Origin: Candidatus Heimdallarchaeota archaeon
GTDB taxonomy: Archaea > Asgardarchaeota > Heimdallarchaeia > JABLTI01
Direction of reading: 5' to 3'
Assembly: GCA_018238155.1 (NCBI GenBank)
Contig: JABCTZ010000032.1
Location: 64,001 to 128,000, forward strand
DNA: 64,000 nucleotides
In this document: in pieces, positions 3,853 to 3,894 of the stretch
Layout: the number at the start of each line of letters is the position of its first letter
Position numbering within the stretch: position 1 is the stretch's first letter
Position numbers and translations under genes: made by a program
Notes under the pieces: generated by a model
The model's database searches: none
The model's input: the letters and a program-made list of their open reading frames with translations, nothing else
What the model was told of the DNA's origin: nothing

Positions 3853-3894
3853 TATACAAGTTACAACTTGTATATTCAAGTTATAACATGCAAA
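3853..3894. promoter_or_regulatory. Two tandem palindromic operator-like sites between pdxS and the divergent ThrC-wHTH gene
   Basis: TATACAAGTT-AC-AACTTGTATA (3853-3874, perfect 10 bp arms) and TATTCAAGTT-AT-AACATGCAAA (3873-3894), offset by 20 bp. Confidence 0.7.

Follow-up and report, generated by a model that had tools for sequence, protein, structure and literature searches.

Two abutting palindromes in the promoter of the pdxST genes are very probably, to judge from comparative genomics, the docking sites of the neighbouring ThrC-wHTH protein, and it is likely that they are the operators through which this protein would act as a B6-responsive repressor. The sites lie in the window, i.e., the whole stretch of 64,000 nucleotides that was analysed. 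The recurrence of their motif before B6 synthesis or B6-type uptake genes across archaea points to an archaeal B6 gene switch. A broader proposal, to which we assign a moderate probability, is that this would be the first archaeal B6 regulon, in which a ThrC-derived pseudoenzyme transcription factor, present from Asgard archaea to Desulfurococcales and Thermococci, may sense PLP without a Schiff base and repress either pdxST or an HmpT/PdxU-like importer. In Bacteria the control of B6 metabolism is known (PdxR). In the papers searched on archaeal B6 regulation and transport we found no description of an archaeal B6 regulator or B6 regulon, and a survey of 2023 names B6 transporters and regulators as a major gap (PMC9997740).

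The genes and sites concerned are the following (window coordinates):

3853-3874, no strand assigned: predicted proximal operator (site 1), a perfect palindrome TATACAAGTT-AC-AACTTGTATA with 10+10 arms and a 2-nt spacer.
3873-3894, no strand assigned: predicted distal operator (site 2), TATTCAAGTT-AT-AACATGCAAA, weaker, a direct copy at 3873-3892/3894.
3840-3847, minus strand: Shine-Dalgarno-like GAGAGGAT of pdxS, read from the sequence, with GAGG/GGAGG aligned in relatives.
2858-3832, minus strand: pdxS (PLP synthase subunit), Pfam SOR_SNZ with E 2e-90, starting at ATG 3832.
2223-2858, minus strand: pdxT (glutaminase subunit), overlapping the pdxS stop, Pfam SNO with E 3.5e-55.
4001-5458, plus strand: divergent regulator gene coding for 485 aa, with a Zn-ribbon, a Lys-less ThrC-like PALP domain and a PadR-like wHTH (Pfam).

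Site 1 reads in full TATACAAGTTACAACTTGTATA, on which the sequence itself and the repeat finder agree; the perfect 22 bp palindrome of the original prediction is thus a 10+10 inverted repeat at 3853-3874. The degenerate second copy, which had been placed 20 bp away, is present at 3873-3894: site 2 (TATTCAAGTTATAACATGCAAA in full) is 80% identical to site 1 as a direct repeat, according to the repeat finder, the two sites are 20 bp apart from start to start, and the outer TA (2 bp) is common to both 22-mers. The halves of site 2 are unequal, in that TATTCAAGTT, towards site 1, is good and AACATGCAAA, towards the candidate TATA boxes, is deviant. The consensus of both sites is TATWCAAGTT-N2-AACTTGWATA.

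A perfect 10+10 palindrome is, on its own, not beyond chance in a window as AT-rich as this one (33% GC), since three were counted and 60 Markov-1 simulations gave a mean of 1.6. Of the 14-nt core CAAGTT-N2-AACTTG, the window contains three copies when up to one mismatch is allowed, against 0.38 expected. The significance of the sites rests on the core enrichment in the window, on their genome-wide PWM rank and on their conservation in other genomes. The near-chance number of perfect palindromes, together with outer arms that read TATA, might lead one to regard the two sites as chance palindromes, or as a plain AT-rich, TATA-like array of a bidirectional promoter without a dedicated regulator. 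We consider this hardly credible: the core CAAG...CTTG contains G/C positions and is shared by phylogenetically distant lineages, it is unique within the genome, no match was obtained with the reversed control, and the motif is absent from the pdxS promoters of genomes lacking the regulator. As for the two further perfect palindromes of the window, they lie at 42059-42081 (ATTCTTGAAG-GAA-CTTCAAGAAT) and 44706-44730 (TTATTAGTTG-TACTC-CAACTAATAA).

The position of the operators relative to the gene depends on the pdxS start codon. A start at 3802 was rejected in favour of ATG 3832 on three grounds: the Shine-Dalgarno sequence GAGAGGA at 3841-3847, 8 nt upstream of this ATG; the tblastn alignments to nine orthologues, which begin at residue 1 of the longer protein; and the ten extra N-terminal codons, which are conserved in a 7-species alignment with varying third positions. 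In two relatives the start column holds TTG or GTG. Because pdxS starts at 3832, the operators lie 21-62 bp upstream of the start, adjoining the ribosome-binding site, rather than 51-92 bp upstream of the ATG as had been proposed.

Two observations concern the surroundings of these genes. The two divergent genes have translation-initiation regions that are related as inverted copies (3825-3847 versus 3986-4008; 23 nt, 74% complementary), reading GAGAGGATTCTCAAAATGAAAAA and GAGGAGTTTCAATAAATGAAAAA, each with a Shine-Dalgarno sequence, a spacer and then ATGAAAAA. Downstream of pdxT, at 541-2106 on the minus strand, there is a gene for a 521-aa secreted or anchored protein with repeated Ig-like/adhesin-like segments and a C-terminal TM anchor.

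A genome scan for the core motif, which the original prediction had proposed as a check, was run on the host assembly (4.08 Mb in 46 contigs, 90.7% complete, the window being on contig 41). The core turned out to be essentially confined to the pdxS promoter: besides the two sites, the exact 14-mer has a single further occurrence, within a TPR-like ORF of contig 24. The latter match (C24:24430) was rejected as chance, since it is intragenic and its flanks are unrelated. A symmetrised PWM was built from 14 sites of different genomes (core TATWCAAG...CTTGWATA); over the 4.08 Mb it places site 1 at the top with 31.2 bits, the runner-up scoring 18.1. With 15.1 bits, site 2 ranks sixth among about 4 million positions, and yet it abuts site 1. 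Matches of 12-18 bits on C44, C6, C20, C7 and C21 were likewise rejected as chance, their context being inconsistent. As the other genomic matches lack a coherent context, the regulon in this organism appears, on sequence grounds, to be limited to pdxST, to which autoregulation of the divergent gene may be added.

The conservation of the sites was then compared in genomes with and without the regulator. In a set of 40 relatives, the same genus and a sister genus have full-length orthologues of the 485-aa protein (58-86% identity) whose genes are divergent from pdxS. All nine genomes of these two genera with the divergent regulator-pdxS pair have the proximal palindrome at the same place, and in the 7-species alignment site 1 is an invariant block, with the remaining spacer diverging. 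The original prediction had named loss of the motif where the gene pair persists as grounds for abandoning it; instead, the motif is conserved wherever the pair is. The distal element is complete only in the window's genome and its closest relative; the other species keep the TATTAAAGTT half and have AACATTAA as the opposite half. The TATTMAAGTT half and the deviant AACAT of the distal site are conserved within the genus, and the sister genus reads TATACAATTT-GA-AAGTTGTATA, with the same position altered in both half-sites. A genome from a different family (G034), whose regulator is 37% identical and located 1.2 kb from pdxST, carries two sites before pdxS, the upstream region being GGTTATAAAC-ACG-TATACAAGATTTAACTTGAATA-TCAAT-TATACAAGTTTCGACTTGTATA-TTAAAGAGGTAATG (TATA, two sites, Shine-Dalgarno sequence and start).

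The pdxS upstream regions of four regulator-less genomes of two further families yielded no site of at least 13 bits, so that the comparison of pdxS upstream regions suggested at the outset gives the motif in genomes with the ThrC-wHTH gene and its absence in these four without it. When 41 genomes were searched for TATACAAG-N6-CTTGTATA with at most one mismatch, the matches (1-2 per genome) were confined to two regulator-bearing families, and the reversed control gave almost none. Combining pattern and PWM matches, a high-scoring site is found in 18 of 20 regulator-bearing genomes and in none of 21 regulator-less ones among the 41 relatives, counts that are descriptive and not a test statistic because the genomes are related. 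The tie between motif and regulator gene is exclusive in this set. One of the two regulator-bearing exceptions has the intergenic region unassembled. In the regulator-bearing relative G030, no site was found in the locus scanned.

The same figures bear on whether the palindromes might be operators of another, unlinked transcription factor, the tie to the ThrC-wHTH gene being mere co-regulation. Binding by the ThrC-wHTH protein is a prediction, and in three genomes (G012, G016 and G026) the regulator gene lies 22-260 kb from the site, both of which leave some room for such a factor. This explanation is nevertheless quite improbable, as the motif follows the presence of the regulator (18/20 versus 0/21), directly abuts its gene from Asgard archaea to Desulfurococcales, and has a conserved half-site core matched by a near-invariant recognition helix. 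The ThrC-wHTH protein thus remains the preferred candidate, as the original prediction had it when it read the sites as operators of a dimeric wHTH repressor, most plausibly this one; comparative genomics supports that reading, with the motif following the regulator gene across phyla.

The alignments also speak to a function in RNA, namely a 5'-UTR hairpin of the pdxS mRNA acting as an attenuator, a riboswitch-like or a stability element. If transcribed, positions 3833-3900 (minus strand) fold to -20.7 kcal/mol with z = -4.3, and the proximal site would be within the 5' UTR if the upstream candidate TATA were used. Against this, Rfam gave no match at E<=1 and the 7-species consensus fold retains only the trivial hairpin of the proximal palindrome, with 0 compensatory and 2 pair-breaking changes. 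The inter-site hairpin is not conserved, the long hairpin being a trivial consequence of tandem palindromes. Moreover, the upstream half of the site precedes the predicted transcription start in the promoters of ecfS (the S-component gene described below), and across phyla it is the sequence, not the pairing, that is conserved. The hairpin/riboswitch reading was rejected on the Rfam result, the 0 compensatory pairs and the two pair-breaking substitutions, and we hold it to be very improbable.

The regulator to which these DNA sites are assigned combines an enzyme-like domain with a DNA-binding one. Its PALP domain is recognised by Pfam (PF00291, E 1e-61). Residues 410-483 match PadR (1.9e-5) and HTH_45 (4e-5) with scores just below the gathering cut-offs, PF03551 reaching 25.0 bits where 27 are required; a precomputed PF03551 match is listed for most homologues. 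A family sequence profile matched PadR structures with E 2e-6. The last 82 residues were modelled (AF2, with a 25-sequence alignment) with a pLDDT of 93.8 and an H-H-H-wing-H topology, and Foldseek aligned the model with the RosR-DNA structure 6qfd (TM 0.75) and with PadR 5dym/3hhh (TM about 0.8). According to this model, the C-terminal domain is a winged helix of the PadR/RosR type. Its recognition helix, S[LVI]QA[VI]YQHL, hardly varies.

The sensor domain is best matched by threonine synthases (6cgq, 2zsj and 1uim; E about 1e-58, the best being 2e-58). The Schiff-base lysine of NPTGSFKDR is replaced by leucine in the window's protein (NPTGSFLDR) and by arginine in most of the family. Either L or R stands at this position in 13 of 13 aligned family members and in 18 of 20 further loci; the other two loci, both from Odin, were unmatched in the motif search and the residue was not read there. 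The genuine ThrC of the same genome, on contig C20, keeps the lysine (NPTGTFKSR). In the databases the homologues are annotated as threonine synthase or as PLP-dependent enzyme.

A further observation concerns the residue before the glutamine of the recognition helix, in that Leu tends to go with CAAG half-sites (Heimdall, Odin and one Bathyarchaeia) and Val with AAAG half-sites (Desulfurococcales and Thermoproteota). The sample (loci L065-L143) is small and phylogenetically confounded, and we regard this pairing as a lead only.

A wider scan, with one genome per species, was based on the signature peptides NPTG[ST][FY][RL]DR and [LK]Q[AS][IV]YQHL[KN]. It retrieved 121 relatives from Heimdall-, Loki-, Odin- and Thorarchaeota, Bathyarchaeia, Methanomethylicia, Desulfurococcales and Thermococci, the closest match of the window being a Heimdallarchaeota MAG. 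In the 80 regulator loci that were retained, the regulator adjoins pdxST or, more often, is located directly upstream of an S-component. The pattern W4-MAAG-N6-CTTK-W4 was found at 35 sites in 28 of these 80 loci, 30 of them beside the regulator gene, and its reversed control gave 0 matches in 509 kb. The motif is also present in the loci of families f1/f2 and in Odin, Loki-type and Desulfurococcales loci, the last with the variant ATATAAAG-N6-CTTTATAT next to the regulator gene. Three Thermococci-type loci (L100, L110 and L143) have neither a site nor an adjacent pdxST or ecfS, which implies that their targets must lie elsewhere.

The spacing of tandem sites is 18 bp in Odin loci and several Desulfurococcales, 20 bp in Loki-type loci and two closed Heimdall genomes, and 27 bp in G034; many Heimdall transporter promoters have a single site. 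The earlier view that a 20 bp spacing marks cooperative sites finds no support here, since the tandem spacing is inconstant and many promoters are single-site, so that cooperativity is not required.

The second target emerged from genomes that keep the regulator and in which pdxS was not found with the query used. This group comprises the majority of the second family's genomes, plus one from the genus of the window. In these, the motif, often in tandem, is located about 20 bp before the gene of a 255-286-aa membrane protein, with that of an ABC ATPase coming next. The membrane protein belongs to the ECF S-components (PF07155, E 1e-17 to 7e-21). The PF07155 family comprises the B6 transporters PdxU and PdxU2/HmpT, and also the riboflavin transporter RibU (PMC9997740), for which reason B6 specificity of the transporter is put forward here as probable rather than certain. 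Its sole sequence match in the PDB is HmpT (4hzu_S, E 2e-6), with no RibU match among solved structures at E<=1; HmpT transports pyridoxamine (PMC4860826). In the window's own genome, which is 90.7% complete, tblastn retrieved no homologue of the PdxU-like S-component. From these distributions, we infer that one operator may guard B6 synthesis where this is present and a B6-type importer where synthesis is absent.

Three side observations were made at these loci. One genus shows two wirings: Leu-type (SFLDR) regulators are divergent from pdxST, and an Arg-type regulator (SFRDR, about 41% identical; G009, contig C27, locus L058), in a genome where pdxS was not found, is upstream of the ECF S-component, which looks like a B6 synthesis/uptake switch among close relatives. 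In family f2 (loci L016-L021) a small ORF of about 65-70 aa (M-x-IVVNSK-x-E...FFLDFEDPLS...CSCDI), absent from the window, lies directly upstream of the ThrC-wHTH gene. Finally, a second site in G011 (L062, 1501-1522, contig C290) has perfect outer arms and a GC-rich spacer, TATACAAGTTGTGGCTTGTATA, with a tRNA-like sequence just before it and an LRR gene close by; it was not counted in the regulon, being either a chance match or an extra member.

The mode of action was approached through the predicted promoter boxes, all on the strand of pdxS:

3891-3901, minus strand: candidate TATA-equivalent TTCAATATTTG, predicted from the 7-species alignment and the promoter geometry of related loci.
3908-3921, minus strand: alternative candidate TATA AATATTTTTTAATC, which includes the TTTTTAAT named in the original prediction; predicted, with AATATTT conserved in the alignment.

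In the 7-species alignment, the sister species carry GTTTATAAAG at the TATA-equivalent position, directly upstream of the distal (half-)site, where the window reads TTCAATATTTG, a poor box. The second candidate box, AATATTTTTTAAT, lies 14 bp farther upstream than the TTCAATATTTG position. A TATA box had also been proposed at 3881-3886 (TTATAA); this was discarded, as it is absent from the conserved columns in the sister species. We also note that the conserved AATATT(T/G) box is doubled (3892-3900 and 3917-3924) in the window's genome and its closest relative and single in the sister species, relative to which about 16 bp with the GTTTATAAAG box seem to have been replaced in those two genomes.

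In related Heimdall genomes, the promoters of the transporter and of pdxS contain a conserved ACCAAAAAAGTTATAAT-like BRE/TATA, which stops 3-5 bp short of the first site. The TATA centre of archaeal promoters lies near -26, and archaeal repressors that block polymerase recruitment use a position of about -19 to +3. With the usual TATA-to-start distance, a BRE/TATA ending 3-5 bp before the site would make the latter span about -19 to +3, and the GTTTATAAAG of the sister species, directly before the distal half-site, would put the strong proximal site at about +1 to +21. We infer from this position downstream of the predicted BRE/TATA that the sites lie where a repressor would, a geometry that depends on the predicted TATA boxes.

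This point weighs upon the possibility that the ThrC-wHTH protein binds the sites and behaves differently, either as an activator or dual regulator, or by sensing a PLP-amino-acid adduct, O-phosphohomoserine or threonine. Bacterial PdxR activates pdxST (PMC5320631), RbkR was proposed to be an activator from the position of its sites (PMC5397151), ThrC, from which the sensor is derived, acts on O-phosphohomoserine, and the transcription start at pdxS is a predicted one. In most promoters, however, the site is downstream, not upstream, of the conserved BRE/TATA, and the targets are B6 synthesis or an HmpT-like importer, never threonine genes. On these grounds we judge this possibility unlikely and prefer B6-responsive repression.

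Under B6-responsive repression, dimers of the divergently encoded ThrC-wHTH protein would recognise the two abutting 22-bp palindromes in the pdxST core promoter, and the dead-enzyme domain would sense a B6 vitamer, most likely PLP held non-covalently. The liganded protein would fill the strong proximal site and, aided thereby, the weak distal one. Occupancy may block the recruitment of RNA polymerase or open-complex formation, as the predicted BRE/TATA is immediately followed by the sites, which extend over the predicted transcription start. B6 synthesis would in this way be shut off when B6 is plentiful, and in pdxST-less relatives the same protein-operator pair would control the HmpT/PdxU-type ECF importer. 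A counterpoint to this model is the distal site, which is weak (15 bits) and a mere half-site in sister species.

The operator links a family mis-annotated as "threonine synthase" to pdxST and to an ECF S-component, and corrects the automatic annotation of hundreds of database entries that are called threonine synthase. Three testable predictions follow, namely a pseudoenzyme transcription factor that senses PLP, the DNA code that it reads, and a B6 importer of archaea; if they are true, the missing archaeal B6 transporter would also be named. The system would further offer a compact pair of ligand and operator of Asgard origin, and homologues exist in the cultivable Thermococcales.

Each part of the system can be compared with a known counterpart. 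ThrC (6cgq, 2zsj and 1uim) gives the best match to the sensor domain, and the archaeal N-terminal Zn-ribbon is common to the regulator and the genome's genuine ThrC; unlike ThrC, the regulator has its catalytic Schiff-base lysine replaced and a DNA-binding domain added. The C-terminal 82 residues share with the PadR family and the haloarchaeal RosR (5dym, 3hhh, 5x11 and 6qfd; TM 0.75-0.81) a wHTH with a trailing helix, and PadR/RosR proteins bind inverted repeats as dimers. These proteins are, in contrast, small and stand-alone (about 100-180 aa), without an enzyme-derived sensor domain, and they respond to unrelated ligands (phenolic acids, drugs, redox state) and have unrelated operators.

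The bacterial PdxR/MocR regulators (PMC5320631) resemble the present system in several respects: they join a wHTH to a sensor of the PLP fold, their genes are often transcribed divergently from pdxST, the intergenic region common to both contains operators of the repeat type, and their regulons comprise genes of B6 synthesis or salvage/uptake (pdxST, pdxK and pdxU). Control of pdxST or of B6 uptake genes from adjacent operators is, in the present case, indicated by comparative genomics. In PdxR the wHTH is N-terminal and of the GntR type, and the domain joined to it is aminotransferase-like, of fold-type I, with the PLP lysine retained (PMC5320631), whereas here a C-terminal PadR/RosR-like wHTH accompanies a fold-type II (ThrC) sensor with Lys changed to Leu or Arg. 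Furthermore, PdxR is bacterial and mostly an activator, while the predicted site position suggests repression here. The two are not homologous as regulators.

RbkR (PMC5397151) is likewise an archaeal vitamin regulator composed of an enzyme domain and a wHTH and found by comparative genomics; its operators are palindromes of 16-20 bp, with two adjacent ones in some lineages, and its targets vary between genomes, being either biosynthesis genes or the S-component of an ECF transporter (RibU). It differs in having another enzyme fold, which is still an active CTP-dependent kinase, another vitamin and another operator sequence, and in that its sites are upstream of the TATA box (proposed activator). 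The ThrC-wHTH system is thus analogous to both PdxR and RbkR and a member of neither family.
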